Below, piece by piece: positions 6,707 to 40,942 of a DNA stretch of 64,000 bases. A program made the translations under genes and the position numbers. This DNA comes from an uncultured Methanosarcinales archaeon (GTDB lineage Archaea; Nanobdellota; Nanobdellia; Woesearchaeales; DSVV01): NCBI GenBank assembly GCA_964556185.1, contig CAZKVI010000002.1, positions 9,930-73,929 on the forward strand. Reading direction: 5' to 3'. Under the pieces are notes generated by a model. That model made no database searches and was not told where the DNA came from. It saw nothing but the letters and a program-made list of their open reading frames with translations. Numbering within the stretch: position 1 is the stretch's first letter; every line of letters begins with the position of its first letter.

Positions 6707-7924
6707 TTAAATTCCATTATCCAATGGAACTTGTTCACCTGTTCTTTCAGGAGTTCCTAATGGACCTGCTGCTTGTTTCAGAACTTCGACTTTGTCAGTG
6801 TATTCCCATGTAAAGTCAGGATCGTTTCTTCCAAAGTGTCCGTAAGTTGCTGTTTTCTTGTAGATTGGTCTTCTTAATTTAAGATGATTAATCATATCTG
6901 CAGGTTTTAGTGGGAAGTGTTCTCTAACTAGTTCTGCAATCTTCTCTTCTGGAATTTTGTTTGTTCCAAAGCAGTGTGTTAAAACAGAAACTGGTTCTGC
7001 AACACCAATTGCATAAGCTAATTGAACTTCACATTTGTCTGCTAATCCAGCTGCAACAATGTTCTTTGCAATATATCTAGCTGCATATGCTGCTGATCTA
7101 TCTACTTTTGAAGGATCTTTTCCAGAGAAAGCACCGCCACCATGTGAACCATGTCCACCATATGTATCAACAATAATCTTTCTTCCTGTTACTCCTGCGT
7201 CTGCTACTGGTCCACCAATTACAAAAGAACCTGTTGGATTAACAAAGAATTTTGTGTCTGCATCAATCCATTGACCACAAACAGGTTTGATTACTCTTTC
7301 AATTAAGTCAGTTCTTATTTGTTCTAGAGTAACATCTGGGTCATGTTGTGTTGAAACAACTACTGCATCAACTCTTATAGCTTTGCCGTCTTGATATTCA
7401 ACAGTTACTTGAGATTTTGAATCTGGTCTAAGATAAGTTAATTCTTTTGCTTTTCTTATTTTGTCTAGGTGTTGTAATATCTTATGGGCTAATATAATTG
7501 GTAGTGGCATTAGTTCAGGTGTTTCATTTGTTGCATAACCAAACATTAGTCCTTGATCACCTGCACCTTGTTCTTTGTGTAATCCTTCGCCTTCTGTAAC
7601 TCCAATAGAAATATCAGGACTTTGTCCAGATATAGAAACTAAAACACCACAAGTATTCCCATCAAAGCCATATTTTGGATTATCATAACCTGCTTCAACT
7701 ATTGTTTTTCTTGCAATTGTCTGAATGTCTGCAAATGCTGAGGTTGTTACTTCTCCTGCAACAACTACAAAACCTGTTTTTGTTAAACATTCAATTGCAA
7801 CCCTTGAATTAGGATCTTTTTCATAAAGAGCATCTAAAACTGCGTCACTAATCTGGTCACATAGTTTGTCTGGGTGACCTCCACTTACTGATTCTGATGT
7901 AAAAAAGTATTTTCCATTTTTCAT
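6707..7924 (-). CDS. metK: S-adenosylmethionine synthetase, bacterial/eukaryotic type
   Basis: Diagnostic MAT motifs '[13 protein letters not shown]', '[12 protein letters not shown]' and '[27 protein letters not shown]'. About 20 extra C-terminal residues. Confidence 0.9.
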
Positions 7925-17428: not shown

Positions 17429-18127
17429 GTGACAGATTATATAACTCCTGAAAGACATGTATTTACTGTTGTAGGTAAAGGAGGAAGATTAAGTGACTTA
17501 GAGAGAACTCTTGAGTTAGCTGTAGGGGAAGTTATTCCAAAATCTTGGTCTACTACAAGTCTAACATCTGTCTGTTCAAAAGTTGGTGATGAAGTTGTAT
17601 TTGATTTTTATTCTACACTAAAATCTGTTCCATCAGAAGGCGAAGGTCTTAAATCAAAAGTTAATTTAAGTGAAATTGGTGCTTTAGCAGTTTTGTTGTT
17701 AAAGTGTGGTTATGAAGTTATGACTCCTGATTATCAAGAACCAAGTGTAAGTGATGATTCTAAAATAACAGACAGACCTTTGTCAAGAACACATCTTGAT
17801 CTGTTTTATGCTGGAACACTTGTTGGAGAAAATGGTAATTTGGATACTTTGAGAGGATTACTTGAGTTTTCTGGAGAAGGTGAAAATCGAGTAGTAGATA
17901 TTATAATGTCACCTTTTCCTAAAAAATATCTAAGATTAATATCTAAAAGACAAGTTGGATTCGATCTTTATGTAAAAAAAATAAACCCAAGGTTTCCAAC
18001 AGAATCAAAAATTTTCAGGCAAGAATTAGGGGGTTTAGCAACAAAAATGTTAATTTCTGGTTATAAATTATCAAGTAGAATGGAAATGGAGCCAGAACTA
18101 TGGCATTTACCTTATCATGATTTCTAA
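17429..18127 (+). CDS. hypothetical protein, first gene of the PEP-utiliser-like operon
   Basis: 232 aa, K-poor composition like the two downstream genes. No motif recognised. Confidence 0.4.
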   Translation: MTDYITPERHVFTVVGKGGRLSDLERTLELAVGEVIPKSWSTTSLTSVCSKVGDEVVFDFYSTLKSVPSEGEGLKSKVNLSEIGALAVLLLKCGYEVMTPDYQEPSVSDDSKITDRPLSRTHLDLFYAGTLVGENGNLDTLRGLLEFSGEGENRVVDIIMSPFPKKYLRLISKRQVGFDLYVKKINPRFPTESKIFRQELGGLATKMLISGYKLSSRMEMEPELWHLPYHDF

Positions 18128-18232
18128 ATCTTTCACATAAACTAAGTAAAAATACCCTCAATTAGTAACAACGAAGGAGAACATATAAAAATAAGCTTAC
18201 TTTACCTTATTATTTAGGGGGCTAATTTTGGG

Positions 18233-20815: not shown

Positions 20816-22293
20816 GATGGAAATATGTTTTACATAGGGATATGAGTGTATTATTTGAGTCTCTTGTACAGAGAGGTATAAGAGATTATACAGCAGAAGT
20901 TTTGGGACTAGATGGTGTTGTTTTAAGTGGTCGTAAAATAGATCATGGAGATATTTATCATGATGAAAGAGAATTAGAACAACTTAGATTAAAAGTTAGA
21001 GCTAAAGTAGATCAAGGAAACTATTTAGAAGAACTTGTTATAGCTTGTGAAAAGGAATGTGAAGAACTAGTTGCTTTTAGTAAAGGAGACAAGGTTGGAA
21101 GTGATGCAGTAGTTCTTGGAGCTTACTTTGATAAAGTTTGTAGAGTTATGCCTTTCTTACCTGTGTTTCCTGTTGTTGTTGAGGGAATTGTTGCTGAACA
21201 AATGGGTCAAATATTATCAAAATATGCAACACCTGAACATCCTGTTAGAGAACTTAGAGAAACTTTTAGTACTCCTCATATGAAGTTTGCAGTACAAAAA
21301 GAACAAGAGTCATTATATAGAATTGCAGGAGCTATACAAAATTCTAGGGAATTAACTAAGTTATTTCAAGAAAAACAAGGTCAAGAATTGTTTGAAGCAT
21401 TAGGTGAAACTTGGTTAGCTACATATTTACAAAATTATGTTGATAGGTATGCTTGGATTGAAACAAGACATTTTAAAGGAGAATTATGGACACCAGAAAT
21501 TGTAATTAATAGAATTAAAGGAGTTCTTAATGAAGATTGTATGGGTAGATATAGGGTATTACTTTCATCATGGGGAGTATCTCAAAGAAGGATTGTAGAA
21601 TTATATGGTGAATTGGGTTTTTTAAGAGAAGATAAAAAAAGAATAGATACATTACGTAAATTAATTTTATTAAAAACACAAAGAAAGGATGCAATTAATC
21701 GAGCAGCTTATCATATGCATCCGGTGTTTTCTAAAGTAGCAGATGCTAGTGGTTTAGAAGTAAGTGATTTGGTTTATTTAGAACCCCATGAATTTGTTTC
21801 TCTTGCACAAGATCCTTCTTTGGTAGAAGATTATCAAAAAAACATTGAAGCTAGGAAACAAGGTTTTGCTTTAATAATGTATGACGGAGATATTAGATTA
21901 TTTGAAGATTATGAAAATGAAGTAGAAACTCCAATGGTTTATTCTGGAGAAGATGAAGTTAGGGGACAGAGGGCTTATCCAGGAGAAGTTACTGGATTAG
22001 CAAGAGTTGTTAGAAATCAATCTCAAGTTGCTTCTTTATCTGGAGCAGATTTAATGGTTTGTATGAATATCCATCCAGATTATGTAGTTGAATTAAGAAG
22101 AATTAGTGAAGAAGGTGCTTGGCAAGGTGGCATTATAACAGATGAAGGAGGAATTGCAAGTCATGCTTCTCAATTATCAAGAGAATTTGGATTGCCATGT
22201 ATTATAGGAACAGGTAATGCAACTAGTGTTTTTCAAACAGGAGATAATGCATATCTTAATGCTACAGAAGGTTATGCAAGAAAGTTGGATTAG
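20812..22293 (+). CDS. PEP-utilising swivel (phosphohistidine) domain protein, paralog of 8362 and 18233, no ATP-grasp
   Basis: C-terminal 'RAYPGEVTGLARVV...IITDEGGIASHASQLSREFGLPCIIGTG'. The region upstream of the swivel domain aligns with the other two paralogs. It overlaps 18233-20815 by 4 nt. Confidence 0.6.
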   Translation: MRWKYVLHRDMSVLFESLVQRGIRDYTAEVLGLDGVVLSGRKIDHGDIYHDERELEQLRLKVRAKVDQGNYLEELVIACEKECEELVAFSKGDKVGSDAVVLGAYFDKVCRVMPFLPVFPVVVEGIVAEQMGQILSKYATPEHPVRELRETFSTPHMKFAVQKEQESLYRIAGAIQNSRELTKLFQEKQGQELFEALGETWLATYLQNYVDRYAWIETRHFKGELWTPEIVINRIKGVLNEDCMGRYRVLLSSWGVSQRRIVELYGELGFLREDKKRIDTLRKLILLKTQRKDAINRAAYHMHPVFSKVADASGLEVSDLVYLEPHEFVSLAQDPSLVEDYQKNIEARKQGFALIMYDGDIRLFEDYENEVETPMVYSGEDEVRGQRAYPGEVTGLARVVRNQSQVASLSGADLMVCMNIHPDYVVELRRISEEGAWQGGIITDEGGIASHASQLSREFGLPCIIGTGNATSVFQTGDNAYLNATEGYARKLD

Positions 22294-22389: not shown

Positions 22390-23463
22390 ATGAATCTAGT
22401 ACAAAGATTAGCAAATTCTGTACCTAGAAGAGTTAGAGTAGCTGCAGCAGTACTACCTACAGCTATAATGGCTTATTTTGGTATTGGTTGTACAGAACCT
22501 GATAATGATGTTTCAGATACAGATACTGCAGCAGATCATGCAACTGAAGATGGTTCAATATTATTTCATGCTAGTCCTGCAAAAGGTGAACCAAGACAAA
22601 TATATAGATTAGATTTGGATTCTTATGAACTTTCACAAGTAACTGATTTTCCAGAATTTGGTGCTTCTCATCCAATCTGGTCTCCTGATGGAAGTTATAT
22701 TGTAGTTTCAAAACAAAATGGAAATAATGGAAGAGGAAGTAGACATCATAGACCTTATTTAATGGCACCAGATGGTTCTGCTCAAGCAGCTATTGAAACA
22801 GGAGCTGAAGGTGATGAAGAAGATAAGTTTGCACAAGTAACTGAAGATGGTACACTTGTTTATGCAACACTAAGACCTTTTGGTTGTGATGATGAAGGGT
22901 GTACAGCTGGTCAAGTAATGACAGCTGATTTAGATGATGTTTTAGGAACAGAAAGAGCAGTAGCTGGAGAACAATATGGAGAAGGTGCATGGGCTGTTAA
23001 TGTTTCGCCTGATGGACAAAAAATATCATATGTAAAAAAGATTTATGGTCAAGATAAAGCTGAACATGATGTTTATGTAGCAAATATTGATGGAACTAAT
23101 GAACAAAGACTTACTAATATGGGACGTATTAGTTATTCAGGAGCTGAATGGTCTCCTGATGGAAAAAGATTAGTATTTTCCTCAGCAGCTGATACAGGTG
23201 GAGAAAATCATGAACTCTACATTGTTGATGCAGATGGAAATAATCTTACACAAGTTCTTAATCCAGAATTAGCAGGTCATGATTGTGTTGATCCTGTTTT
23301 TACAAATAATGGTGAAATTGTTTTTGTTGATAGACTTAGTGGACCAAATAGACAATTAGCTATTGTTGGTGAAGATGGTCTTGGTTTAGAATACTTAACA
23401 GAAGAAGAAGACTTTCATGCATTAGGTGCTCCTGATTATGGTGTTCAAGGTCCAGTTGAATAA
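22390..23463 (+). CDS. TolB-like WD40/beta-propeller protein with N-terminal signal/TM
   Basis: Repeated 'SPDG(S/Q/K)' blades: 'WSPDGSYIVVS', 'VSPDGQKISYV' and 'WSPDGKRLVFSS'. N-terminal hydrophobic segment. A/G/D-rich, K-poor. Confidence 0.6.
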   Translation: MNLVQRLANSVPRRVRVAAAVLPTAIMAYFGIGCTEPDNDVSDTDTAADHATEDGSILFHASPAKGEPRQIYRLDLDSYELSQVTDFPEFGASHPIWSPDGSYIVVSKQNGNNGRGSRHHRPYLMAPDGSAQAAIETGAEGDEEDKFAQVTEDGTLVYATLRPFGCDDEGCTAGQVMTADLDDVLGTERAVAGEQYGEGAWAVNVSPDGQKISYVKKIYGQDKAEHDVYVANIDGTNEQRLTNMGRISYSGAEWSPDGKRLVFSSAADTGGENHELYIVDADGNNLTQVLNPELAGHDCVDPVFTNNGEIVFVDRLSGPNRQLAIVGEDGLGLEYLTEEEDFHALGAPDYGVQGPVE

Positions 23464-23469
23464 ATTCTT

Positions 23470-24435
23470 TTACAATTCTTTAGAATATTCATCCATATCT
23501 TTCTCAGATTTCATTACTTTTCCCTTTCCAGCTTTTGCTTGCTTCATACTTTTCTTTACTCCTTTGATAAGCTTCTTATCTAAGTGTAAATAATTCTCCT
23601 CAGAAACTACAGACTTTCCTGTCTTTTGTTCTAGTTCTTCTCTTGTATGTTTCGCTATGCTTCCACCATCTTTTGCAGAATTTTTACATTCTTTAAATCC
23701 TCTAGAATCTTTTGCAGTAGTAATATCAGTAGTAGCTTTCTCACCAATCATTGTAAGGATTAATTCCCAATCATTCATATGATCTCTTAAGTTTTGATTT
23801 TTCTTTTGTAATCCTTTGAATTTTTTATGTTCTTGTGTAGTTTTTCCAAATGTTGCATTACTTATTTCATTTGTTAAGATTGCAAACTCTTTGCCTTCTT
23901 CTACATCCCTTTGTCTCCATTCATCTGTAAGTTCTTGTCTTATAGCAATTCCTCTCAAGCGTTTATCAATCCACTCTTTTGGATAACCTTTAAGTTCATA
24001 ATATTTCTTGACTCTATCTTGAGCAATTTCTGGGTTTTCAATCTCTTCGATTCTTTCATATCCTACTTGAGCCAACCATTTTTTGAATGGTTCAGCTTTT
24101 TTAGAAGGTATTGATTGAATTATCCTAAACATAGATTTTGTATCTGCACAGTCTGTAGCATAATATTTACCATCTGAAGCAGGTAATTTCAGTTGTACCC
24201 AGATTGGGGACAACTGGAGTTGTTCAAATTCTCTATCTTTCACTTTACCCCAATACTGTCTAGGAGTTGGGCTTTCTGTTAATGCTTGAACTACATCAAC
24301 TATTGAAAAATACCATTTATTATTATGCCAGATTCTTCTGATTTTCTTATCTTGAAATACAATCAAAGTTTTCGTTTTGGAACGAAAACTAAGTTGCTTG
24401 TCAGCAACCAAAGATTTAGATTCCTTAGACTCCAT
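23470..24435 (-). CDS. BRO-N domain protein (phage antirepressor / DinD-like)
   Basis: N-terminal 'KIRRIWHNNKWYFSIVDVVQALTES' is the BRO-N signature. The charged C-terminal region resembles viral/prophage BRO-family proteins. Confidence 0.55.
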   Translation of the reverse strand: MESKESKSLVADKQLSFRSKTKTLIVFQDKKIRRIWHNNKWYFSIVDVVQALTESPTPRQYWGKVKDREFEQLQLSPIWVQLKLPASDGKYYATDCADTKSMFRIIQSIPSKKAEPFKKWLAQVGYERIEEIENPEIAQDRVKKYYELKGYPKEWIDKRLRGIAIRQELTDEWRQRDVEEGKEFAILTNEISNATFGKTTQEHKKFKGLQKKNQNLRDHMNDWELILTMIGEKATTDITTAKDSRGFKECKNSAKDGGSIAKHTREELEQKTGKSVVSEENYLHLDKKLIKGVKKSMKQAKAGKGKVMKSEKDMDEYSKEL

Positions 24436-28632: not shown

Positions 28633-29163
28633 ATGGTTAGAGAGATAGATTTGGAATTATTAGCACAAGATACTATTGAATATATGAGAGCATCTCCTGG
28701 AAGAAAATGTAAGGGAGTGAATAAAAGAAAATTAGCTCAAGAAGCAGGCCTTAATAGGGATCATCTCACTGAGATTATTGAACAAAGAACATCAAGAATA
28801 ACACATTTAACACTTGCAAAATTGTGTAGGGTTTATGATTGCGAACCTATGAAATATTTCAAACCACAAGAATCTTATTCAGATGGACAAGTAAATATGG
28901 ATTTATTTGTTAGTGATTTAATTAAATTATTTGCAGATCCTAATTATGAAGACATCAATGATCAAGTTTCTTTAGCTAAAAGATTAGGTACACAGTCCCC
29001 ACAAATTAGTAGAGTATTTACAGGTGTAACTAAAAGAATTCATAGGGGAACTTTAGAAAGATATTGTACTGAATTAGGTTTTGATTCTAAGAAATATGTT
29101 GTAGGATCTTCTTATGCAGTTCCAGGACGTGAAGCTATGGAAACTATTAGGGTTGCTGTATAA
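28633..29163 (+). CDS. tandem HTH (XRE-like) DNA-binding protein
   Basis: Two XRE-type helix-turn-helix segments: 'LAQEAGLNRDHLTEIIEQRTSRITHLTLAKLCRVY' and 'LAKRLGTQSPQISRVFTGVTKRIHRGTLERY'. Confidence 0.5.
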   Translation: MVREIDLELLAQDTIEYMRASPGRKCKGVNKRKLAQEAGLNRDHLTEIIEQRTSRITHLTLAKLCRVYDCEPMKYFKPQESYSDGQVNMDLFVSDLIKLFADPNYEDINDQVSLAKRLGTQSPQISRVFTGVTKRIHRGTLERYCTELGFDSKKYVVGSSYAVPGREAMETIRVAV

Positions 29164-29183
29164 ATAAAAAAGAAAGAAAATTC

Positions 29184-29579
29184 TTATAAATAATCTGCAC
29201 CAGTTGAAGTATCATAAGGTTCTGGAGTTAGTTGTTGAATTTCTTCAAGTCTGCCAAGATATTGGCCACCTAATTGTTCTCCAAGTCCGTATGTTCTAAT
29301 TGGTAAGACCTGTGCAAGTTCAACATCAAGATCACCAGGTACATGATCTAATAAATGTTGTACAGCTGTTCCAAGATCACCATTACGTGCTGCTAATGCT
29401 GCTGTTATGCTTTCAGAATCTGCCGCAACTTCTGTTCCAAAGAATCTTTCTAAAGCTCCACTAATTATTGCATAATTAATATCTGTGAATCTCTCTCCAG
29501 TGTCGTAAGCTACTGTATCAACATCTGCACCAGTAGTACATTCTTCTGTAAGCCAATCTCTATCTTCATTTCCGCTCAT
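29184..29579 (-). CDS. hypothetical acidic protein (lysine-free, compositionally atypical)
   Basis: 131 aa, A/G/D/E/L-rich with zero Lys. Higher GC than surroundings. Confidence 0.35.
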   Translation of the reverse strand: MSGNEDRDWLTEECTTGADVDTVAYDTGERFTDINYAIISGALERFFGTEVAADSESITAALAARNGDLGTAVQHLLDHVPGDLDVELAQVLPIRTYGLGEQLGGQYLGRLEEIQQLTPEPYDTSTGADYL

Positions 29580-29707
29580 TGTTTACACCCTCATTATTTT
29601 GAAACCAAAGGAAGGTATTGCCCAAGGAGATAGGCAATCACCTTTAATATAATAGTAAGGTTTATATACTATAATAACTTACTGTTATTATTATAACAAA
29701 AATAAAG

Positions 29708-30370
29708 GTGATTGTTATGGTTACAGTTATGCAATTAGTAAAGGATATGGTTAGAAAGCGTCCATTTATAGAAGAGGCCTTGGCTAGAGGTATAATCAAT
29801 TATGGATCATTAGCAGATGAATTAAAGCCAGAAATAGAAGCTATACTAGAAAAAGAAGTCAAACATTCTGCAGTAATGATGGCTTTGAGAAGAACAGCTG
29901 AAAATATTGACAAAGCAAAGTTAGCAAGGGTGAAGTTTGATAAAAATACAGATATAACTCTAAAATCTAATTTGTTTGAGATAACTGTTCAAAAAACACC
30001 TACAATATTTCAACAATTGCAAAAACTATACCAAATAGTTGACTTTAATCAAGGGGATAGTTTAACAATTACTCAAGGTCAACATGAAGTAACTATAATT
30101 TCTAATAAAAAGTATAGAAAAAGATTTGAAAAGGTTTTTGAAAAAGAAAAAGTAGTAAAAGTAATTGAAAATCTTGGATCACTTAGTGTAATGATTCCAT
30201 TAGATGCAATTGAACAATATGGTTTGTTTTATGTTGTTACAAGAGAATTATCTTGGGAAAATATTAATATAATTGAATTAGTTTCTACATTAAGAGAAAT
30301 GACTTTAATTTTACATCAGAAAGATGTAACAAGAGCATTTGATATAATGCAGAGATTAGTTAGTGGCTGA
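29708..30370 (+). CDS. hypothetical protein, possibly regulatory
   Basis: 220-aa ORF. The start is uncertain: ATG 29708 or ATG 29717. Confidence 0.35.
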   Translation: MIVMVTVMQLVKDMVRKRPFIEEALARGIINYGSLADELKPEIEAILEKEVKHSAVMMALRRTAENIDKAKLARVKFDKNTDITLKSNLFEITVQKTPTIFQQLQKLYQIVDFNQGDSLTITQGQHEVTIISNKKYRKRFEKVFEKEKVVKVIENLGSLSVMIPLDAIEQYGLFYVVTRELSWENINIIELVSTLREMTLILHQKDVTRAFDIMQRLVSG

Positions 30371-31034
30371 GGACAAAATGTGGATAGGACACTTTAAAGT
30401 TTGGCATAAGAATTGTATTTATCTAGAGAATTCATCTAAATATGATGTTGTTATTTCTATGTATCCATTAACTTCATATAAAGAAGGCAAATATGTTTAT
30501 CATACAAATGTTAATATTTTGACTGGCAAAAATATTGATAAATTTATCAAAGCAATTAAGAAAGATAAACGATGTTTGAATTTTAATGGTTCTGGGAATG
30601 TTTATTTGTCTCATTTACGAATGGATGTTAAAGATTTCCATACAACTAATTATTATACTCCAAAGATTTTTTTATTAAAACCAATTGTTCATAAGAATGG
30701 AAAAGAAGATTGGTATTTTGGTGCTTGGGAAAAAGAAACAATAACTGAATTATATAATACTTTCAAAAAACACTTTAATGTTGAAATGTTGTCAATAAAA
30801 GAAAAAGATTTCACTGATTTATTTATCCCCCACATAATGCCAAAGATAACTGAAAAGCAGAAATTGGCAATTCATCTGGCAATAATGAGTGGTTATTATG
30901 AATTTCCAAGGAAGATTGATTTAAGTAAATTAGCTAAAATGATGAATGTTTCTAGAGTAACTTATCAAGAACATTTGAGAAAAGCAGAAAGGAAATTAAT
31001 TCCGCAGATATTTGGGTATTCTGGTAAGGAGTAA
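30363..31034 (+). CDS. HTH_10 (bacterio-opsin activator-type) transcriptional regulator
   Basis: C-terminal 'ITEKQKLAIHLAIMSGYYEFPRKIDLSKLAKMMNVSRVTYQEHLRKAERKLI' fits the HTH_10 signature (GYFxxPR ... HLRxAExKL). Confidence 0.55.
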   Translation: MAEDKMWIGHFKVWHKNCIYLENSSKYDVVISMYPLTSYKEGKYVYHTNVNILTGKNIDKFIKAIKKDKRCLNFNGSGNVYLSHLRMDVKDFHTTNYYTPKIFLLKPIVHKNGKEDWYFGAWEKETITELYNTFKKHFNVEMLSIKEKDFTDLFIPHIMPKITEKQKLAIHLAIMSGYYEFPRKIDLSKLAKMMNVSRVTYQEHLRKAERKLIPQIFGYSGKE

Positions 31035-31045
31035 GGTTTATAATA
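31033..31045 (+). promoter_or_regulatory. archaeal BRE/TATA promoter
   Basis: 'aaggTTTATAATa' with the TATA ending 22 nt before the ATG at 31067. Confidence 0.4.
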
Positions 31046-31066
31046 GTATGTTAATTTCTTTGTAAA

Positions 31067-31873
31067 ATGAGTACAGATATACCTAGAGAACATTTAGAAT
31101 ATAGGGATGCACTTACAGTTCCAGATGGATATCATCTTTCATATGGGGGAGAATTTGGTTGGCTTCTTGCTAGAGAAGATGTAAATTTAGTTTTCCAATT
31201 AACTGATAGAACTTTTGGAGACCTAGAACAAACTCCACCTGAACAAGATACAAGTGATATTGATTATTGGACAGGTCATGCAATATCAAGATCAATAGAA
31301 GCAATTATTGCAGAAAAAGGAAGGGCAGTTGTTTTGGATGTAGCATGCGGCCCATTAAATAAAGCTGCATACCAAATTGCAGAAAAATACGGTGATCAAG
31401 TTGAGGTAAAAGCTGTTGATTTATGTGGTTCAACAATGGCTTATACTAGGTCCAACCTCGAGAGAAGAACAGGAAGTGCACTTACATTACCTTATGGAGA
31501 TGGATCAATTGATATGGTTTATTCATTTCAGTTTCTTACAAAAATATCTGTGAATGAACTTAGAGTTGCTTTTGGAGAAATATTAAGAGTAATGGGTGAT
31601 AATTCTCAAGCAGTTTTAGGTATTCTAAATACAGATGGCCTGTATACAAATACATGGTTGAATAGATATCGTCGACCATCTTGGATTCCTGAAACAGCAA
31701 TAACTTTTGAAGATCCATTTGATATACATGAAAAACCTTGGGACTATTCCGGAGAAGATTTTAATTTGCATTTTAGACCTGTTACTGAATTTAATCAAAC
31801 AAAGAGTGGTGGTGCAGTATTGGGAAATTGGGGACTTACACCATTTTTACATATTACTAAGGGTAGTAAATAA
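31067..31873 (+). CDS. class I SAM-dependent methyltransferase
   Basis: Motif I 'VVLDVACGP', acidic 'VKAVDL', motif II 'PYGDGSIDMVYS' and motif III 'AFGEILRVMGDNSQAV'. Not convincingly CheR-like. Confidence 0.5.
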   Translation: MSTDIPREHLEYRDALTVPDGYHLSYGGEFGWLLAREDVNLVFQLTDRTFGDLEQTPPEQDTSDIDYWTGHAISRSIEAIIAEKGRAVVLDVACGPLNKAAYQIAEKYGDQVEVKAVDLCGSTMAYTRSNLERRTGSALTLPYGDGSIDMVYSFQFLTKISVNELRVAFGEILRVMGDNSQAVLGILNTDGLYTNTWLNRYRRPSWIPETAITFEDPFDIHEKPWDYSGEDFNLHFRPVTEFNQTKSGGAVLGNWGLTPFLHITKGSK

Positions 31874-31911
31874 CTATTATGTTTAAATATTAGTTCTTAT
31901 TTCTTTAATTA

Positions 31912-32514
31912 ATGTCAACAGATATTTCAAAAGTTGTAGTTATTGGAAGTTCAACTGATGGTTGGGTGGAAGCACAAACTATTCTAGATAGTTTAACTCT
32001 TCCTGAAAATGCTTGTGTTATTTACATTCCTCATGTTCATGCAGATGATGTTTATGATCATTTATCAGCTCATGGAAAAAGAGTTAAGAGAATTGAGCAT
32101 GGAAAACCTCTTGAACCTGGAGTAATTTATGTTGGTATTGATGAAACAGAAGTTGTAATGGGGTGGGGTGCTGATTTAGATGGATTTTATGGAATAAAAA
32201 GAGAACTCTCTTTTGTTGGAGCCAGTGGATCTTATGTTTTCGGATTAGGGAGAGAAACAGAAATGCCAATTGATTCTGCATTTACTGCTGTTGCTGATAC
32301 ATTTGGAGAAGCATCAATTGGACTTATATTAATGGGCATGCAGAACGATGGAGCACATGGTATTGAAGGTGTTAAATCTAAAAATGGAGCTACTTTATCT
32401 AGAGAGCCAACTAGACATCATACAATGCCTTATAATGCAGTACAAACAGGTTGTGTAGATTATGTTTTACCTGTGGAAGAAATAGGTCCAAGGCTTGAAC
32501 AATTATTAGGTTAA
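31912..32514 (+). CDS. CheB-like protein-glutamate methylesterase catalytic domain (stand-alone)
   Basis: 'VVVIGSSTDGW' (Ser region, cf. IGASTGG), 'IYIPHVH' (His region), 'PIDSAF' (Asp region) and 'IGLILMGMQNDGAHGIEGVKSKNGATLSRE...VDYVLPVEEIG' (cf. ILTGMGxDGAxG...GGxTIAQDE...VDxVLPLxxIA). Confidence 0.6.
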   Translation: MSTDISKVVVIGSSTDGWVEAQTILDSLTLPENACVIYIPHVHADDVYDHLSAHGKRVKRIEHGKPLEPGVIYVGIDETEVVMGWGADLDGFYGIKRELSFVGASGSYVFGLGRETEMPIDSAFTAVADTFGEASIGLILMGMQNDGAHGIEGVKSKNGATLSREPTRHHTMPYNAVQTGCVDYVLPVEEIGPRLEQLLG

Positions 32515-32562
32515 TAACCTACATATGTAGGGTAAAATTAGATATAATGTATATTAGTTCTA

Positions 32563-33006
32563 GTGTTTATGATTAAACACACAATATCAATAAACACAAA
32601 AGAACATACAGCTTTCCATGATATAACTAATGGAATACAAGAGTTAATTACTAAAAATAATATCAAAGAAGGGATTGTTGTAGTTAAAACATTGCATACA
32701 ACAACTGCAATTTGTGTTAATGAGAATGAAGAAGGATTAATTAAAGACAAAATAAAGTTTCTTAAGTCAATTATTCCAGAGAATTCTTATTATCATCATG
32801 ATGATTTTTCTAAAAGAACAATCCCAGAAGCAGATAAATATAAAAGAAAGAATGCTTTTTCACATCTTAGAGCACTATTATTGGGCTCTGAAGCAACAAT
32901 AAGTGTTGAAAATAACAAATTATCTTTAGGAACATGGCAATCAATATTTTTTGTTGAATTAGATGGTCCAAGAGATGATAGAAAAATAGAAATATTAGTA
33001 AGATGA
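32563..33006 (+). CDS. YjbQ/UPF0047 family protein
   Basis: 'LHTTTAICVNENEEGL', 'HLRALLLGSEATISVENNKLSLGTWQSIFFVELDGPR' and 'RKIEI' fit the family signature. Confidence 0.7.
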   Translation: MFMIKHTISINTKEHTAFHDITNGIQELITKNNIKEGIVVVKTLHTTTAICVNENEEGLIKDKIKFLKSIIPENSYYHHDDFSKRTIPEADKYKRKNAFSHLRALLLGSEATISVENNKLSLGTWQSIFFVELDGPRDDRKIEILVR

Positions 33007-33359
33007 TAAAAAAAGAATTAAACAATCTAAATTGGAAAGAAAGGTTTGTTTATCTAAAAGATATTCCTTTTGATGAAAAAGATTTGCAACAAAAAGGTTC
33101 AAAATTCCAAATTGTAAAATTCCAACCAAAAACAAGCATAAAACCACATTATCATAAAAAAACAACAGAGATATTTTATGTAAGGAGTGGCGAAGCAATC
33201 ATGAAATTTAATAAAGAAGAAATCTTAGCAAAAAAAGATGATATATTCTTATGCAAACCTAATGATGTTCATGAAGTTATTAATAATTCTGATGAAGAGT
33301 TTGTTTTGTTAATTTTCAAAACTAATGAAGAACCCAATGATTTATACTGGGAAGAGTAA
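33003..33359 (+). CDS. cupin-domain protein
   Basis: 'KPHYHKKTTEIFYVRSGEAIM' and 'DVHEVIN' give cupin motifs 1 and 2. Confidence 0.6.
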   Translation: MIKKELNNLNWKERFVYLKDIPFDEKDLQQKGSKFQIVKFQPKTSIKPHYHKKTTEIFYVRSGEAIMKFNKEEILAKKDDIFLCKPNDVHEVINNSDEEFVLLIFKTNEEPNDLYWEE

Positions 33360-34255: not shown

Positions 34256-34552
34256 ATGACATACTCTATAGACATATGTTGGCAGGATATGCCAGTTAAG
34301 TATAAAGGATTAAGATTAACTTCATCAAAGAGTGCTTTAAATGAGTTAATGAAATATGGATTTGATCTTGAAGATTGTAAAGAAATATTAGAATTAGGTT
34401 ATCATGGAAGAAAAAGATCTAAAAACAAGATTGAGAAATGGCTTGATAGAAGAGATAAGACATTTAATATTGTAATAGCAAAGGATTTTCATGAAATAAT
34501 GAAAGAAGAAGTCTGGGTAATAATACACCTTGGAAAATTTACTAAAAAATGA
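34256..34552 (+). CDS. small hypothetical protein, upstream partner of the AbrB-like gene
   Basis: 98 aa. Overlaps the next gene by 4 nt. Confidence 0.3.
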   Translation: MTYSIDICWQDMPVKYKGLRLTSSKSALNELMKYGFDLEDCKEILELGYHGRKRSKNKIEKWLDRRDKTFNIVIAKDFHEIMKEEVWVIIHLGKFTKK

Positions 34553-34866
34553 AATGTTACAAATGTAAAAAAGTGATGAAATACACTAAAGGATTAAGGT
34601 TTAATGAGTATAAACTAGATGGATGGAAATGTAGTAAATGTGGTGAAGAATATTATGAACCAGATCAAGTACAAAGAATTTTATTATTGAATAAACTGAA
34701 AAAACAGAAATTTCATCTAAAATTAAGCCAAGTTAAGAGTAATTTAATTCTTAGACTACCTAAAGAAGTTAGTGATGCATTAGGATTAAAAAAAGGCGAA
34801 GAAGTTGAATTTAGTCTTAAAAAGGATAATGAAATGGTAATTCATCCAATGCATGCGAAGGCTTAA
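34549..34866 (+). CDS. zinc-ribbon + AbrB/SpoVT/MazE-like swapped-hairpin DNA-binding protein
   Basis: 'CYKCKK...CSKCGEEYY' forms a zinc ribbon. C-terminal 'LRLPKEVSDALGLKKGEEVEFSLKKDNEMVIHP' is AbrB/SpoVT-type. Confidence 0.45.
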   Translation: MKCYKCKKVMKYTKGLRFNEYKLDGWKCSKCGEEYYEPDQVQRILLLNKLKKQKFHLKLSQVKSNLILRLPKEVSDALGLKKGEEVEFSLKKDNEMVIHPMHAKA

Positions 34867-35397
34867 TTATTCAGTAAACTTTTCCACATGATAAATTTCT
34901 ATATCTAATTGGCCAGAAGTCCATTCATCTGGTAATAATCCTGCTTTAGTGCAGAGATGCGATAGAAATTCTTCTTTGTTTGGCAAGTCTTCCCAAACTT
35001 GAGGTAAGAATGTAGATGAATGAAAGCTTTTTTTTAATACAACACCATCTTTGTTTGTTAATTTGTTTAATAAATCATTTTTATCTTTGTATTCTAGTTT
35101 ATTTGGTTGCGTTAGCACAGAGATTTCTATTTTTAATTTGTCAATTTCATCTTTGCTTACAGGAGGGAACCTAGGATCTCTGTAAGCAGCACTTTTTGCA
35201 CACTCTACAACTGAATCAAATATCGAAGCAATAGGTTGAATATAACCAATACAGCCCCGTAATTGGTTGTTTATTGTTAGTGTTACGAAAACACCTCTAT
35301 TCTCTTGTAGAGAGTCTGGAATATTTTTAGTTATTTCTTCGTTTTTTATTGACTTCCTTGCTATTTTCAATAATAATTCTTTATTTTCTTGATTCAT
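34867..35397 (-). CDS. AMMECR1-domain protein (AmmeMemoRadiSam system protein A)
   Basis: 'GVFVTLTINNQLRGCIGYIQP' is the AMMECR1 signature. Confidence 0.75.
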   Translation of the reverse strand: MNQENKELLLKIARKSIKNEEITKNIPDSLQENRGVFVTLTINNQLRGCIGYIQPIASIFDSVVECAKSAAYRDPRFPPVSKDEIDKLKIEISVLTQPNKLEYKDKNDLLNKLTNKDGVVLKKSFHSSTFLPQVWEDLPNKEEFLSHLCTKAGLLPDEWTSGQLDIEIYHVEKFTE

Positions 35398-35414
35398 TTT
35401 CTCACCAATAATTT

Positions 35415-36164
35415 TTACTCATAAAACGCAAAACTAGAGTAACCTACTACTCTAGTTTTATCTCCTGTTACATCTCCTGAATTTTTATAACACAATTGTT
35501 TAACTTTCCAATTTAATTTCTTAGCAATCTCTAATAATATTAATATTGGTGTTTTTCCACATGCTTCTGTCAGTTTTTCTGGTTGTAAATTTAATATGGC
35601 TTTATTGGTTTTCTCGTCGAGCTTATTAGCAGCTTCGTAATCATAAAAATGACTTAGATCAGAACTAATAATTAACAAAGTGTCTTGGTCTAATAATTTC
35701 ATTATTTTGTCACTTTCTTCTTTTGGATTTAAATCTCCTGTTAATAATGGCATGATTTCAAAATCATCTAATAATAATTGTAAAAAAGGAACTTGTACTT
35801 CTAAACAATGATCCATTGCATGTGCTTGTTCTCTTTTAGTGAAGTCATTTTCAATTAATTTAACTTTTCCTAGTGGTGTTTCCCAATAATCATTATCATC
35901 TGCAATAATCTCATCCATATAAACTTGGTGTGATGGACCAAGTAAAATAATTCTTTTCTTATTTGCTTCTTTTACCAAAGAAAAAGCATATGCAGCTACT
36001 TGTCCAGAATAAGTCCAACCAGCATGCGGTACAATAATTGCTTTGAGTTTTCCATTTATTTCAATCTTAGGAACATTTTCCATGAATTGAGTTACCATTT
36101 CTTTGATTTCTTCTTTATTTCCTGGGTAGAATGCATTTGCCACTGCAGGTTTTCTCATTTCCAT
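35415..36164 (-). CDS. MEMO1-family protein (AmmeMemoRadiSam system protein B)
   Basis: 'AIIVPHAGWTYSGQVAAYAF' and 'GPSH' are MEMO1 signatures. Confidence 0.75.
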   Translation of the reverse strand: MEMRKPAVANAFYPGNKEEIKEMVTQFMENVPKIEINGKLKAIIVPHAGWTYSGQVAAYAFSLVKEANKKRIILLGPSHQVYMDEIIADDNDYWETPLGKVKLIENDFTKREQAHAMDHCLEVQVPFLQLLLDDFEIMPLLTGDLNPKEESDKIMKLLDQDTLLIISSDLSHFYDYEAANKLDEKTNKAILNLQPEKLTEACGKTPILILLEIAKKLNWKVKQLCYKNSGDVTGDKTRVVGYSSFAFYE

Positions 36165-37213
36165 ACACCTTTTATTTCTTTATTACATTTTAAGCATTTT
36201 CCATCTTTAAAGTTTTCGATACTTGTAAGATAAACATGTCTATTTATCAATAATGTATTACATTCTGGACAATAAGTGCCAGAGTGTTCTTCGTCGACAA
36301 CATTACCAACATAAACATACTTTAAGCCAGCTTTTTTACCAATTTCATAAGCTTTTAGTAGTGTTGCATGTGTTGTTTCTGGAACATCATCCATTTTATA
36401 TGTTGGATAAAAAGCAGAAACATGCCAAGGTATGTTTTTATCTATATTTGCAATAAATTCAGCTATTTGTTTTAATTCTTTATCTGAATCATTATGATTA
36501 GGAATAATTAATGTAGTTATTTCAACCCATATTCCTAATTCATAAGCTTTTTTTATTGTTTCTAAGACTGGTTTAAGAGATGCTTTACAGATTTTCTTGT
36601 AAAAGTCTTCTGAAAATGATTTTAAATCAAAATTTATTGCATCAATACAATCTTTTAACATTTCAAGACATTCATCTGTTTCATAAGCATTACTAACCAT
36701 AACATTTTTTATTCCTTTTTTCTTAGCAAGTTTTGCAGTATCATGTAAATATTCAAAAAATATTGTTGGTTCATTATAAGTATAAGCAATACTTTTGATT
36801 CCTTGTTCTACACAAATATTAACAATCTTTTCTGGTGATAATTCATAACCAAATTTTCCAACTTCAACTTCTATTAATTCTGGTTTGTTTTCTTTCAATA
36901 GTTTTGTCTTTAAATCTTTAGTAATTTGAGAAATATCCCAATTCTGGCAAAAAGTGCATGAGAAATTGCAACCAACTGTTCCAATAGAAAAAATATCAGT
37001 ACTTGGCAAGAAATGAAACAAAGGTTTTTTCTCAATAGGATCAACATTCGCAGAAACAGCTTTACCATAGACTATGAGATAGAGTTTACCTTCTTTGTTT
37101 AGTCTTACTCCACAAATACCTGTTTGATTGTTGGAAATTGTACAATTTTGCTTACATGCTGTGCATTTGACTTTATTATCTTTTAATTTTTCATATAATA
37201 CACATTCTTTCAT
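36155..37213 (-). CDS. radical SAM enzyme (AmmeMemoRadiSam system radical SAM, PFL-activase-like)
   Basis: Radical-SAM cluster 'GCNFSCTFCQNW' plus an N-terminal Cys-rich segment. Adjacent to and overlapping the MEMO1 and AMMECR1 genes. Confidence 0.7.
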   Translation of the reverse strand: MKECVLYEKLKDNKVKCTACKQNCTISNNQTGICGVRLNKEGKLYLIVYGKAVSANVDPIEKKPLFHFLPSTDIFSIGTVGCNFSCTFCQNWDISQITKDLKTKLLKENKPELIEVEVGKFGYELSPEKIVNICVEQGIKSIAYTYNEPTIFFEYLHDTAKLAKKKGIKNVMVSNAYETDECLEMLKDCIDAINFDLKSFSEDFYKKICKASLKPVLETIKKAYELGIWVEITTLIIPNHNDSDKELKQIAEFIANIDKNIPWHVSAFYPTYKMDDVPETTHATLLKAYEIGKKAGLKYVYVGNVVDEEHSGTYCPECNTLLINRHVYLTSIENFKDGKCLKCNKEIKGVWK

Positions 37214-37245: not shown

Positions 37246-38349
37246 TTATCCTTCCATTACCATATACATATCATAAATCTCAGGCAGGGTTTTCCATTCT
37301 ACTTCTCCAGAATCAATATAAGGTTGTATTTGTGTAAAGAAATAGTCAAATACTTCTTCATTGAGTATTGGATCACCTATGCTCCAAGCTACATAATATA
37401 TATTTAATTCATCTTGTTCAGTATTTGCTATGATTTCTTGTAAGTTTTCAATATAAACATCAACATCTTCATTTGTAAAATATGATTTTCCACCAGGTAA
37501 TGTTTGTTGATTCTTTAATGCCATTTCTTCTTGAGTTGTAGGTCCAAAACCTTTTATTATATTATTTGCTGGTAATATTACAAGTTGTCCATTAGGATCA
37601 TGATTTATCCAATTTAATCCAGAATCCATTTTCCAAGGATGTGATCTTTCTAATAAATCTGAAGGAAATGCATCATGGCATTTTACTGGGTTTTCACAAT
37701 CTTTGAATTCTTCTGGTCTATCTTCATAAGGCATTGATACAACACAATAAGCAACATTTCCTGTTGTGAATGAATAACCAGCATCTATTGCAGCTGTTAC
37801 CCAATCTAGATCTGAACATGTACCAGAAACATGTCTTACTTCATGACCAATTAAGTTTTCCATATTATTTTTCATTTGTGTAATTTCATGAATCATTTGT
37901 TCTTGAGAATATCCTAATTCAATTGCTCGTCCACCGACGTCTGCATGCACACCAATACCATGGCCTCTATTGTATAATTCTAATAAAACATTATCATTCC
38001 AATTACTACATCCAGAAACAAACTCTGGTTTTGCTTCAAAAGTTATTTTTGCATTATTTTCTTCAAAAATTGTAGCTATTTGTCTAGCAGCAATAGCATG
38101 ATCTTCGAATTGATCTTGATTAGTGTCTTCAGTTGTCCAACCTTCTAGATGTAACATAAATCCAAGATAAACAACACCTGGAGTATTTTGTATTGGTGGA
38201 ATACAATCTGTTCTACAAGTACCAAGTTGTAATTCAGCAGAATCACAAACACCATCTCCACAATTTTCTTTTGGATCTTCTTCACAACTAGAAGTAAATA
38301 ACACAATTAATAATAAAATTGTTAATAGTATTTTTTTATTCATTTTCAA
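37246..38349 (-). CDS. secreted Cys-rich lipoprotein, hydrolase-like, function unknown
   Basis: Signal + lipobox 'LFTSSC'. N-terminal 'CGDGVCDSAELQLGTCRTDC' module shared with the next gene. Overlaps the next gene, suggesting an operon. Confidence 0.4.
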   Translation of the reverse strand: MKMNKKILLTILLLIVLFTSSCEEDPKENCGDGVCDSAELQLGTCRTDCIPPIQNTPGVVYLGFMLHLEGWTTEDTNQDQFEDHAIAARQIATIFEENNAKITFEAKPEFVSGCSNWNDNVLLELYNRGHGIGVHADVGGRAIELGYSQEQMIHEITQMKNNMENLIGHEVRHVSGTCSDLDWVTAAIDAGYSFTTGNVAYCVVSMPYEDRPEEFKDCENPVKCHDAFPSDLLERSHPWKMDSGLNWINHDPNGQLVILPANNIIKGFGPTTQEEMALKNQQTLPGGKSYFTNEDVDVYIENLQEIIANTEQDELNIYYVAWSIGDPILNEEVFDYFFTQIQPYIDSGEVEWKTLPEIYDMYMVMEG

Positions 38350-40942
38350 TTATCACAGTTATTCTATTGCCTATTGCATATGCTTTTATTATATAAAAGT
38401 TATCAATTTCTTCTTTAGAAATAAGTCTTCCATTACTTACATATACCTCTTTGATATTCCAATTTCCTTTTTCAAAGGCAATTGTTACTTCACCAGAAGC
38501 ACTATACAATCCAACTGCAAACATATTATCTTCAAAAGCAGTATCTGCAATGTTTGCACCATTAACAGCAATAATTTGTGGATTATTTGAACTTTCTACA
38601 ATGCTTAAGAACATTGGTGAATTTTCTTCTAAACTATGGCCAGAGGGTTGCATTGTAAACCAATCAAATGCATCAATATCTATAGAAGTTGTTTCTGGAG
38701 AAAATAAATATCTATAATTGTTTCCAAATGATTCAACACCTTCAAATTCTTCTCCAGCTTCAAAGAATTCCCATAATGTTGTTTGGAATTCTGAAACTAA
38801 GTCTTCATCACTAGTTAATCTTGGAAACCAGAAAACAGTTTTATCTTTGTAACCAACAGTTGGAATAAAGTCAACATCTAAATGACCAATTGCAAAATAA
38901 TTACCCATTTCAAACTCAGGAATATAAAATAAGTTCTCAGTGTCAAAAGTTCCTTGTAAAGTACCTTCTAGAGGAGAATCTTCTGAAGTAACTGACCAAG
39001 ATGAAACCTGGCCTGTAAAATCTGTTACAGAAGAAACATCTAATAATATTTCTAATGCAGTTGTATCATAATTTCCATAAGTATCATAAACACCTGTTCT
39101 TCCACCAATAAATAATCCATTTCCATTATCTCTATAATCAGAAAGTTCTTGTGCTATTTCTGTATCTAATCTTGTTAAATGCAATAATAAGATTGCTTTG
39201 TAATCATTTAGAATATCTGGATTATCTTTTATGTCTTTTGTTGTAATCATATCAAAATCTAATCCATTTTCATAAAGAGATTCTAACCAACCAACTCTAT
39301 CAAGTGTTTTAGAATCTAAACCAACTTTACCAGGTTTTCTATAATAAAAATTATCTGCTTCTTGATCAAATAAAATTGCAATATCTGGTTTCGGTGATTT
39401 TAAATTTATTGCAGTGTAGAATGCATTAACTTTTTGTAATTCATTAATTTCATTTTCAGACCAAGCAGGAATATCTTCTCTATCTGGTCCAATAACCCAA
39501 CCAGAACCACCACCAAGGCTTGCAATAAGACTAGAGATACTATCTAATCTCCAAATACTATCTTGATTACCACATTGTGAATTCATTTCTGCAGTATCTT
39601 CATTTATCCATGTTGTAAGTTTGTTATGTCTATTTGCATAAGTTATAACATCATAAAAACTATATCTATTTGTGTTGAAACTACTTCTTTTATCATCACA
39701 AGAAACTCTTGGATGCAAAACAAGCCCGTCGACAAATTGTGATTTGTACATTTCTTCTGCATTTGTTTTTCCACTGCGTACAGATGATGTTGCAGTTCTT
39801 CCTGGTGCAAAAGCAGGTCCTGTTAGAATTATGTGATTAGGATCTAAGTTATCTACAAGTTCTGCAAAATGATTAAAATCAGCCATTTTTTCTTCTAATC
39901 TAAAAGTTTGCCAATCATAAAATTGCATTCTTGTATCGCCTGCAGAATTTGCATGCTCAATTAATTCATCAATATTATCTTCGACACTTTCTAATGGAAT
40001 TGGCATTTCGGCTGTGTCTAAAGTTACTTTATCATTATCCCATGCACTTTGTAATTCAGAATTACTGGTGTATTTATTTTCTAACCATGAATGCCATCTT
40101 TGTACTGCAAAATCAGAATAATCACACCAAGTACTTGGAGCAGTTGTTCCATCTAAAACAGATTGAATATAACTTGGACCATAATTATTTTCAGTTGTTG
40201 AACCAACTCTAACATCCCAGGCTAAAACAGCAGGATGATCTTTGTATTTGTTAACAATTTCTGTTATAATTATATCTTTTACATCCCACCAATCTTCATT
40301 ATGAAAAGATACAGTGTTATCTATAATACAATTTTCATTATTAAGGTAACAATTATAATCTTCTTGTAATGTTCCAGAATTAGATTCTGACCAATCTCTT
40401 GTTGGATTAGATGTTGGTAATAAAAAGATTATATAAACTCCTTGCTCAGCTGCGTAATCTAAAAGATTATCCATTTTCTCAAAATTACTACCTTGGATAT
40501 TAGATCCAATTTGTAAATAAGTTAAGCCAGCATTATTTACACTATCAATATATTCTTTATAATGATCTAGCCAATCATCATCTTCATAATTAGGACAACC
40601 CATTTGACAATATACATTTAATCCTGTAAAAGGTATAACTTTGTTGTTGACAACTAATTTTGGTGTTTCATCAATGATTTCTACTTTAGATTCTTGTATT
40701 GTGTTTTCGCAATCTTCAGGACAAGTTAGTAATGTTTCTCTAGGTCTACACACAGTATCTCCACAATCTTGCCATAGGTCTATTGGCGCTTCTGTCACAG
40801 TTTCTTCTGAATATGTTTCGCAATCTTCTGGGCATTTATCAATTTCAACAGGATCACATATATTATCTCCACATTTATCATCAGAATTCTCACACGCAGT
40901 AAGTAATAAGATTAATAGTAAGATAATTGATAGTTTTTTCAT
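38336..40942 (-). CDS. secreted multi-domain glycoside hydrolase (GH42/GH5-like TIM barrel + trimerisation-like domain)
   Basis: Lipobox 'LLTAC'. Two 'CGDxxCxP...CPEDCE' modules. 'GLNVYCQMGCPNYEDDDWLDHYKEYIDSVNNAGLTYLQIG...GVYIIFLL' looks like a TIM-barrel GH. 'PDIAILFDQEADNFYY' resembles the GH42 middle domain. Confidence 0.5.
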   Translation of the reverse strand: MKKLSIILLLILLLTACENSDDKCGDNICDPVEIDKCPEDCETYSEETVTEAPIDLWQDCGDTVCRPRETLLTCPEDCENTIQESKVEIIDETPKLVVNNKVIPFTGLNVYCQMGCPNYEDDDWLDHYKEYIDSVNNAGLTYLQIGSNIQGSNFEKMDNLLDYAAEQGVYIIFLLPTSNPTRDWSESNSGTLQEDYNCYLNNENCIIDNTVSFHNEDWWDVKDIIITEIVNKYKDHPAVLAWDVRVGSTTENNYGPSYIQSVLDGTTAPSTWCDYSDFAVQRWHSWLENKYTSNSELQSAWDNDKVTLDTAEMPIPLESVEDNIDELIEHANSAGDTRMQFYDWQTFRLEEKMADFNHFAELVDNLDPNHIILTGPAFAPGRTATSSVRSGKTNAEEMYKSQFVDGLVLHPRVSCDDKRSSFNTNRYSFYDVITYANRHNKLTTWINEDTAEMNSQCGNQDSIWRLDSISSLIASLGGGSGWVIGPDREDIPAWSENEINELQKVNAFYTAINLKSPKPDIAILFDQEADNFYYRKPGKVGLDSKTLDRVGWLESLYENGLDFDMITTKDIKDNPDILNDYKAILLLHLTRLDTEIAQELSDYRDNGNGLFIGGRTGVYDTYGNYDTTALEILLDVSSVTDFTGQVSSWSVTSEDSPLEGTLQGTFDTENLFYIPEFEMGNYFAIGHLDVDFIPTVGYKDKTVFWFPRLTSDEDLVSEFQTTLWEFFEAGEEFEGVESFGNNYRYLFSPETTSIDIDAFDWFTMQPSGHSLEENSPMFLSIVESSNNPQIIAVNGANIADTAFEDNMFAVGLYSASGEVTIAFEKGNWNIKEVYVSNGRLISKEEIDNFYIIKAYAIGNRITVIIENE

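Follow-up and report, generated by a model that had tools for sequence, protein, structure and literature searches.

A stand-alone CheB-family protein next to a presence/absence methyltransferase gene in a DPANN-type archaeon

We describe two adjoining genes in a 64-kb window of archaeal DNA (the whole stretch analysed; positions 9,930 to 73,929 of contig CAZKVI010000002.1), one for a class I S-adenosylmethionine (SAM)-dependent methyltransferase (31067–31873, + strand) and, directly downstream, one for a stand-alone CheB-like protein (31912–32514, + strand). The CheB-like gene codes for a true CheB methylesterase/deamidase family protein that has no receiver domain. The reading that we favour, with moderate confidence, is that its product is an orphan, constitutively active hydrolase of a non-chemoreceptor substrate, which sits beside a lineage-specific accessory methyltransferase. 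A preliminary description of this DNA had held that such a pair implies reversible carboxyl-methylation of a non-chemoreceptor target. A conserved methylation switch is not supported, because the methyltransferase is generic and is missing from a near-identical sister lineage; to judge from the sequence comparison, the two genes are probably neighbours in this lineage only.

By its sequence content, the window contig is that of a DPANN-type (Woesearchaeota-like) archaeon, as the preliminary description had suspected. The genes are archaeal (aIF2-gamma, S6e, NurA, PAC2, deoxyhypusine synthase), and the nearest GTDB genomes by TopA are metagenome-assembled genomes of Ca. Woesearchaeota/Nanoarchaeia, at 54–56% identity. 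All of the open reading frames (ORFs) listed in that description were found, on the + strand and with the coordinates given below. A tRNA scan and an Rfam scan of the window were both empty.

Pfam annotation of essentially every window ORF of at least 70 residues revealed no methyl-accepting chemotaxis protein (MCP), CheA, CheW, CheR, CheY, CheD or archaellum family, in line with the earlier remark that MCP, CheA and CheW are missing; this absence is to be read within the 64 kb. Likewise, the related loci of six lineages, ~100 kb in all, were found to hold no che gene. In a comparison of chemoreceptors across archaea, the DPANN group was reported to be without a chemotaxis system (PMC9680633), and our literature searches returned no description of orphan CheB-type enzymes in DPANN. 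We infer that the rest of the genome would also be without chemotaxis genes.

The CheB-like protein and its clade

The CheB-like ORF encodes a 200-residue protein whose CheB domain begins at residue 9 and covers the whole of the Pfam profile CheB_methylest (PF01339; profile positions 1–174 of 174), with 88.6 bits against a cut-off of 24 (E = 5e-25). The catalytic motifs on which the preliminary description had based its assignment (GSSTDG, PHVH, PIDSAF, IGLILMGMQNDGAHG and VDYVLPVEEIG) were all found. In HMMER alignments to the solved structures 3sft, 1chd and 7esg, Ser14 (in GSSTDG), His41 (in IPHV) and Asp121 (in PIDSAF) align to CheB Ser164, His190 and Asp286, and the Ser-His-Asp triad, as read from these alignments, is intact. 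A receiver (REC) domain was sought in the ORF and none was found, as had been claimed. The score against the full-length NCBIfam CheB models (PRK00742/PRK12555) stays at 58–59 bits, far under the cut-offs of 293–342, because that domain is absent.

The AlphaFold (AF2) model, computed with an alignment of relatives as input, reached a mean predicted local distance difference test score (pLDDT) of 91.8 and a predicted template-modelling score (pTM) of 0.90. When it was compared with the PDB by Foldseek, the top eight matches were all CheB catalytic domains (probability 1.0, template-modelling (TM) scores of 0.74–0.79), with 3sft and 1chd as the best and 6ymz and 1a2o also among them, and the next matches had E > 1e-3. 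The window protein thus belongs to the same Pfam family as the CheB catalytic domains of Salmonella (1CHD/1A2O), Thermotoga (3SFT) and Pectobacterium (6YMZ) and has the same alpha/beta fold (TM 0.75–0.79), with the triad and the GxGxDG(A)xG motif at equivalent positions. It differs from these solved CheBs in lacking the N-terminal receiver and any MCP, CheA, CheW or CheR context, in sharing only 20–25% sequence identity with them, in carrying IPH(V/I) instead of QHM as its histidine motif, in its divergent central region (residues 76–118) and in falling into a separate clade. The receiver-less CheB of Campylobacter jejuni is a further known analogue; both proteins are CheB catalytic domains of ~200 residues without the CheY-like domain (PMC3879368). 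However, the C. jejuni enzyme acts in a complete pathway (Tlp receptors, CheA, CheW, CheV and CheR), whereas none of these components was seen in the window and the phylum of the window organism is reported to be without those chemotaxis genes.

When 1.8 billion representative proteins were searched exhaustively by HMMER, 8,936 CheB-domain hits were obtained. Ranked well above the others was a small set of full-length matches of 195–218 residues, with 35–42% identity and E values of 1e-20 to 1e-34. Every member of the clade has Ser14, and nearly every one has His41 and Asp121. A neighbour-joining tree built from 129 CheB domains groups 15 stand-alone proteins as monophyletic, although this monophyly is only indicative because the tree carries no bootstrap support and the profile was built from the clade itself. 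The absence of a receiver is not in itself rare, as 28 of the 114 other top hits are also no longer than 230 residues. A scan of GTDB genomes with the CheB-like protein gave no match.

The genes for the stand-alone clade proteins (195–276 residues) each occur singly, in neighbourhoods that are unrelated to one another, and most of their contigs are archaeal and of DPANN type. Six contexts were compared: the window with its sister lineage; a locus where DeoC flanks the gene at one end and PNP and PRTase genes flank it at the other (L022); L024/L025; a locus where the flanking genes are for an MscS channel and a DRG GTPase (L035); one with a PKD surface protein and a cation ATPase nearby (L036); and one on a bacterial contig (L019). 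They have no neighbour in common, and a methyltransferase gene (the window's own aside) or a che gene was found in none of them. The ORFs directly upstream of the other clade members are unrelated to one another and to the window.

The methyltransferase gene and the sister lineage

The gene upstream encodes, as described before, a class I SAM-dependent methyltransferase (268 residues), which scores 33.9 bits (cut-off 21.2) and 33.0 bits (cut-off 27) against the Pfam families Methyltransf_11 and Methyltransf_25. Its Pfam listing at E ≤ 1 holds only Methyltransf_11/25/31/8 and Ubie. Is it a CheR? The CheR and CheR_N profiles (PF01739/PF03705) gave no match even at E ≤ 1, and a sequence search of solved structures gave no significant match for the methyltransferase and no CheR among the PDB hits. 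In the structural model (pLDDT 81), the N-terminus consists of one helix and three beta-strands instead of a CheR-like helical subdomain, and no CheR structure was among the top 50 Foldseek PDB matches. Many class I methyltransferases were matched at probability 1.0, yet at TM scores of only 0.31–0.43; weak similarities to BioC, LahSB and JHAMT were also seen. The methyltransferase is therefore a generic class I enzyme, and neither its sequence nor its N-terminal architecture nor its fold is that of a CheR.

With generic Methyltransf_11/25 enzymes (PH0226, 1VE3; YcgJ, 1XXL; TleD, 5GM2; RebM, 3BUS), the window protein shares the Rossmann core and the VLDVACG SAM motif, which in the form VVLDVACGPLN is invariant within its own family. 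It differs from them in the conserved N-terminal (RLTDRTFGD, SDIDYWTG) and C-terminal (FRPVxEFN) regions of that family, which are structurally unmatched. The enzyme comes from a small DPANN-associated accessory family with N- and C-terminal extensions of its own. A viral origin was considered and rejected, as IMG/VR contigs hold no relatives of the methyltransferase.

Pairs of CheR and CheB carry out adaptation in chemosensory systems, including systems unrelated to motility such as Wsp (WspC/WspF). The window resembles them in that a methyltransferase gene adjoins a CheB-type esterase gene. Unlike the CheR of such pairs, however, the window enzyme lacks PF01739/PF03705, the helical N-domain and any match to the CheR fold; moreover, the pairing is not conserved, and receptor and kinase are absent.

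The lack of conservation is seen in the sister lineage. P0002 is the one close ortholog that the CheB-like protein has in the database, and for more than 20 kb the contigs that carry it match the window in gene order (NurA, QRPTase, TopA, DUF7523, HTH_10, CheB-like, YjbQ, cupin, PAC2 and GH42-like), with flanking proteins that are 92–98% identical. There, the CheB-like gene follows directly after HTH_10, with no methyltransferase gene between them. A conserved leader of 38 nucleotides (nt), which includes a TATA-like box, precedes the CheB-like gene in both lineages (31874–31911, + strand; 36 of the 38 nt identical); in the window it comes after the stop codon of the methyltransferase, and in the sister lineage after that of HTH_10. 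The near-identity of this leader at its shifted position therefore marks the methyltransferase gene as a clean presence/absence difference. Among 5.8 billion proteins, the best homologues of the methyltransferase are only 47–49% identical, with no ortholog above 50%, so the sister lineage has no methyltransferase ortholog even though it has kept the CheB-like gene. In the window lineage, the arrangement of both genes is fixed in 5 of 5 contigs from different samples.

Homologues of the methyltransferase were found in three further neighbourhoods (SLT...MutS; NfeD/S49 protease...; MFS...rubrerythrin), none of which holds a CheB-like gene. Across the four methyltransferase contexts and the six CheB-like contexts, no partner gene is in common. 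The adjacency expected of a conserved two-gene module of methyltransferase and methylesterase is thus not seen, and with two families that are adjacent in no other locus examined and a methyltransferase that is no CheR, the step from gene pair to switch in the preliminary description is not supported.

Composition gives no sign of a foreign island, a possibility that we rejected: GC content (~0.31) and GC at third codon positions (GC3, 0.1–0.2 across ORFs) are uniform. Neither enzyme was matched in PADLOC, and an anti-phage defence system was rejected as well.

Evolutionary rate, start regions and competing readings

Comparison of the window with the sister lineage showed that the synonymous divergence (dS) of the CheB-like gene, 0.36, lies within the range of its neighbours (0.27–0.50), whereas its nonsynonymous divergence (dN), 0.227, is well above theirs (0.01–0.09). 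The resulting dN/dS is 0.63 (bootstrap 95% interval 0.41–0.99), compared with 0.03–0.15 in housekeeping neighbours, 0.19–0.30 in YjbQ and surface-type genes and 0.71 in a secreted propeller protein; as these rates come from two alleles only, relaxed and diversifying selection cannot be separated. The ratio is raised along the whole gene (0.46–0.84), with a peak at residues 76–120, and the protein is 67% identical to its sister ortholog. Since its dS equals that of the neighbours, the gene is a vertical ortholog and was not brought in with the methyltransferase, and we rejected on the same ground the idea of a divergent allele imported with the methyltransferase as a foreign cassette. These results indicate that the CheB-like gene is a vertically inherited, weakly constrained and dispensable accessory gene.

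Could it be a functionless relic of an ancestral or acquired chemosensory system, evolving close to neutrality? The upper limit of the dN/dS interval, the gene-wide elevation of the ratio, the low identity to the sister ortholog beside the 92–98% of the neighbours and the lack of partner genes would all suit such decay. On the other hand, the ORF has stayed intact in both lineages over a dS of ~0.36, the protein still has its triad and its GxGxDG motif, its structure is predicted with confidence as that of a CheB, and dN/dS reaches 1 or more in only 1.8% of the bootstrap replicates. Furthermore, clade members that are just 35–42% identical have kept Ser14 in every case and His41 and Asp121 in nearly every case, which requires long-term purifying selection. 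We therefore regard decay as unlikely.

The start regions of the two genes bring up a further alternative. The preliminary description had pointed out that both enzymes begin with MSTDI, which is correct and rests on DNA: an element of 27 nt, ATTTCTTT-N5-ATG-N3-ACAGATAT, lies across the start codon of the methyltransferase (31054–31080, + strand) and again across that of the CheB-like gene (31899–31925, + strand). The pattern search gave these two matches only in the window; the number expected by chance is 0, also if 2 mismatches are tolerated. The element occurs twice per locus in window-lineage contigs and once in sister-lineage contigs, and its two arms are imperfect inverted copies of each other, with the ATG at their centre. 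A search with a relaxed inverted-repeat pattern gave no other credible site, and a role as a general promoter or operator motif was rejected accordingly. Homologues of the methyltransferase begin with M-x-E-[DE]-E-I-P, so that part of the MSTDI match (D-I-P) comes from the family. Pure chance was nevertheless partly rejected as an explanation, as the upstream ATTTCTTT, at identical spacing, is private to both genes. In the favoured reading, the common MSTDI comes from a duplicate of the 27-nt CheB-like start region that the methyltransferase gene carries. From its sequence and placement, the element is most plausibly a copied start region tied to the methyltransferase insertion or deletion, or else a shared cis element, and it is the main support for co-regulation in this lineage. 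Campbell-type integration via the 27-nt repeat was rejected, since the left part of the leader that is of chromosomal type lies downstream, not upstream, of the methyltransferase.

Each gene also has a TATA-like box whose centre lies 26.5 nt upstream of its ATG, TTTATAAT for the methyltransferase (31037–31044, + strand; read from the sequence) and TTTAAATA, within the 38-nt leader, for the CheB-like gene (31882–31889, + strand). No Shine-Dalgarno sequence was found before either gene. Read against the standard layout of archaeal promoters, these boxes suggest that the two genes are independent leaderless transcription units of the same design.

Could the two proteins then be writer and eraser, reversibly carboxyl-methylating a non-chemoreceptor target and perhaps co-regulated through the start element, for example by the HTH_10 regulator? 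Their genes adjoin on one strand, only their two start codons carry the 27-nt element, the distance from TATA-like box to ATG is identical, both proteins are lysine-poor and of accessory type, and the arrangement is fixed in all five window-lineage contigs. In addition, the Methyltransf_11 superfamily includes carboxyl O-methyltransferases, and BioC, LahSB and JHAMT are among the weak similarities of the enzyme. But the sister lineage keeps the CheB-like gene without a methyltransferase ortholog, the two families were never adjacent in any other locus examined, every CheR hallmark is missing from the methyltransferase, and the CheB-like gene is weakly constrained, unlike a core component of a switch. 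We consider such a pair doubtful. A bolder version, which we rate a little lower still, would have the stand-alone clade be a DPANN-associated glutamine deamidase/glutamyl methylesterase repurposed for an endogenous or host target and recently joined by the methyltransferase under the copied start element, as a newly formed writer/eraser switch.

A host-directed role appears improbable. Here the organism would be an episymbiont whose constitutively active CheB-like deamidase/esterase acts on chemoreceptors or other proteins of its host and evolves in an arms race. The high dN/dS, comparable to that of the secreted propeller protein in the window, the concentration of the clade on small-genome archaeal contigs and the fact that no endogenous substrate class is known in DPANN (PMC9680633) are compatible with this. 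However, the sequence has no obvious N-terminal signal peptide or secretion-associated domain, no secretion genes are adjacent, nothing points to a host, and from two alleles the elevated rate may equally reflect relaxed or positive selection. Least probable of all is an ordinary chemotaxis CheB with a full MCP/CheA/CheW/CheR system elsewhere in the genome: receiver-less CheBs do work in real chemotaxis systems, as in C. jejuni (PMC3879368), 'CheB only' is among the architectures listed for archaea (PMC5847659) and the genome was seen over 64 kb, but che genes are absent from the window and from the related loci of six lineages, DPANN are reported to lack such systems (PMC9680633), the protein falls in a clade apart from canonical CheBs, and archaeal cheB usually lies within che operons beside cheY (PMC5847659).

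How would an orphan CheB-family hydrolase beside an accessory methyltransferase work? With no receiver domain to gate its active site, the CheB-like enzyme would be constitutively active and would be controlled only via transcription, from what appears to be its own leaderless-type promoter. It would hydrolyse a glutamyl methyl ester, or deamidate a glutamine, on a protein other than a chemoreceptor. The methyltransferase gene sits between the HTH_10 stop codon and the CheB-like leader in the window lineage alone, where the copied 27-nt region may place both genes under a common cis element.

Several points weigh against this reading. The two genes adjoin on the same strand, 38 nt apart, and share a start element that has no third copy in the window; they may thus be co-regulated, or be a functional pair that has newly formed in the window lineage. 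No third lineage has this synteny, and the methyltransferase difference may be either a gain here or a loss in the sister lineage. The search for che genes covered 64 kb of the genome, several of the clade contexts were read from short contigs, and a dN/dS of 0.63 also fits a gene that is drifting towards loss.

Neighbouring genes and the meaning of the locus

The preliminary description had placed both enzymes at the end of a 'regulator cluster'. Its members are real, namely a tandem XRE-type helix-turn-helix (HTH) protein, an HTH_10 regulator and a third, unknown protein that we assign to DUF7523, but they do not form one conserved unit, as the sister lineage has only two parts in common with it, DUF7523-HTH_10 and the genes that follow the methyltransferase. 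The XRE-type protein (28633–29163, + strand; 176 residues) has two Pfam domains, HTH_26 at residues 27–72 and HTH_31 at 112–151. The sister protein at this position has 254 residues and is only 27% identical, so that the segment differs between the lineages. To the same variable segment belongs an ORF absent from the earlier list (29184–29579, − strand), which encodes an acidic, lysine-free protein of 131 residues (K = 0.00, D+E = 0.19, GC3 = 0.11); it had no Pfam, NCBIfam or PADLOC match and no ortholog in the sister locus.

The next two genes are conserved core. The DUF7523 protein (29708–30370, + strand; PF24367, E = 5e-7) overlaps the following ORF by 8 nt, is 97% identical to its sister ortholog (dN/dS 0.04) and is a putative ligand-binding partner of the HTH_10 regulator. 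Within 29690–29720, its start is more probably ATG 29717 than GTG 29708, as the former is preceded by a Shine-Dalgarno-like AGGTGA; the genome therefore uses Shine-Dalgarno sequences for some genes. The HTH_10 transcription regulator (30363–31034, + strand; PF04967, E = 8e-19) is 98% identical to its sister ortholog (dN/dS 0.03).

On the other side of the two enzymes, the CheB-like gene closes with tandem stop codons, and 3 nt after them comes a perfect palindrome of 14 nt, CCTACATATGTAGG (32518–32531). The window has no second copy of it, with 0.02 copies expected by chance, and both lineages keep it without a change; it may act as a terminator hairpin or as an operator of YjbQ, the next gene downstream. 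The YjbQ/UPF0047 and cupin genes (32563–33359, + strand) are conserved downstream neighbours in both lineages. YjbQ itself (32563–33006), directly downstream of the CheB-like gene, is also unusually diverged (82% identity, dN/dS 0.30), while the next two genes are at ~95% and ~0.08.

Further segments differ between the two lineages. At 17429–22293, the window has an insertion of three lysine-poor genes; in the sister lineage, the propeller protein follows directly after QRPTase. The three genes encode a 232-residue protein of unknown function, an 860-residue protein with PPDK_N and the PEP-utilizers mobile domain, and a 493-residue protein with a PEP-utilizers domain. At 34256–37213, a MazE-type toxin-antitoxin pair and an AMMECR1-Memo-radical SAM trio lie between PAC2 and a gene for a 369-residue protein, which in the sister lineage comes directly after PAC2. 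A Bro-N domain protein (23470–24435, − strand) matches the PADLOC candidate defence family PDC-S13 (E = 6e-115) and stands at the edge of a variable segment, where the sister lineage has a ParE toxin pair. More generally, the window proteome is bimodal in lysine (e.g., 22390–23463, 29184–29579, 31067–32514 and 37246–40942): lysine-rich genes (at least 10%) are the conserved core, and lysine-poor, acidic genes (at most 5%) are those with insertions and deletions or fast evolution relative to the sister lineage. Elsewhere in the window, a bacterial-type S-adenosylmethionine synthetase, MetK (6707–7924, − strand; S-AdoMet_synt N, M and C domains), occurs in the otherwise archaeal contig, and two adjoining lysine-poor proteins (5381–6386) carry one FHA domain each, with no kinase or phosphatase partner apparent in the window.

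What does the locus mean for the CheB family? The adjacency that resembled a new switch is a presence/absence difference between near-identical lineages, which calls for caution: the label of a 'novel reversible methylation system' is unwarranted without genome-wide co-occurrence data or biochemistry. The one known role of CheB-type enzymes is to erase the methylation of chemoreceptors. A receiver-less CheB-like clade in archaea that are reported to be free of chemotaxis suggests a second class of substrates for this fold, and the remaining interest lies in this orphan clade, together with the small chance that the window has caught a writer/eraser pair at its origin.

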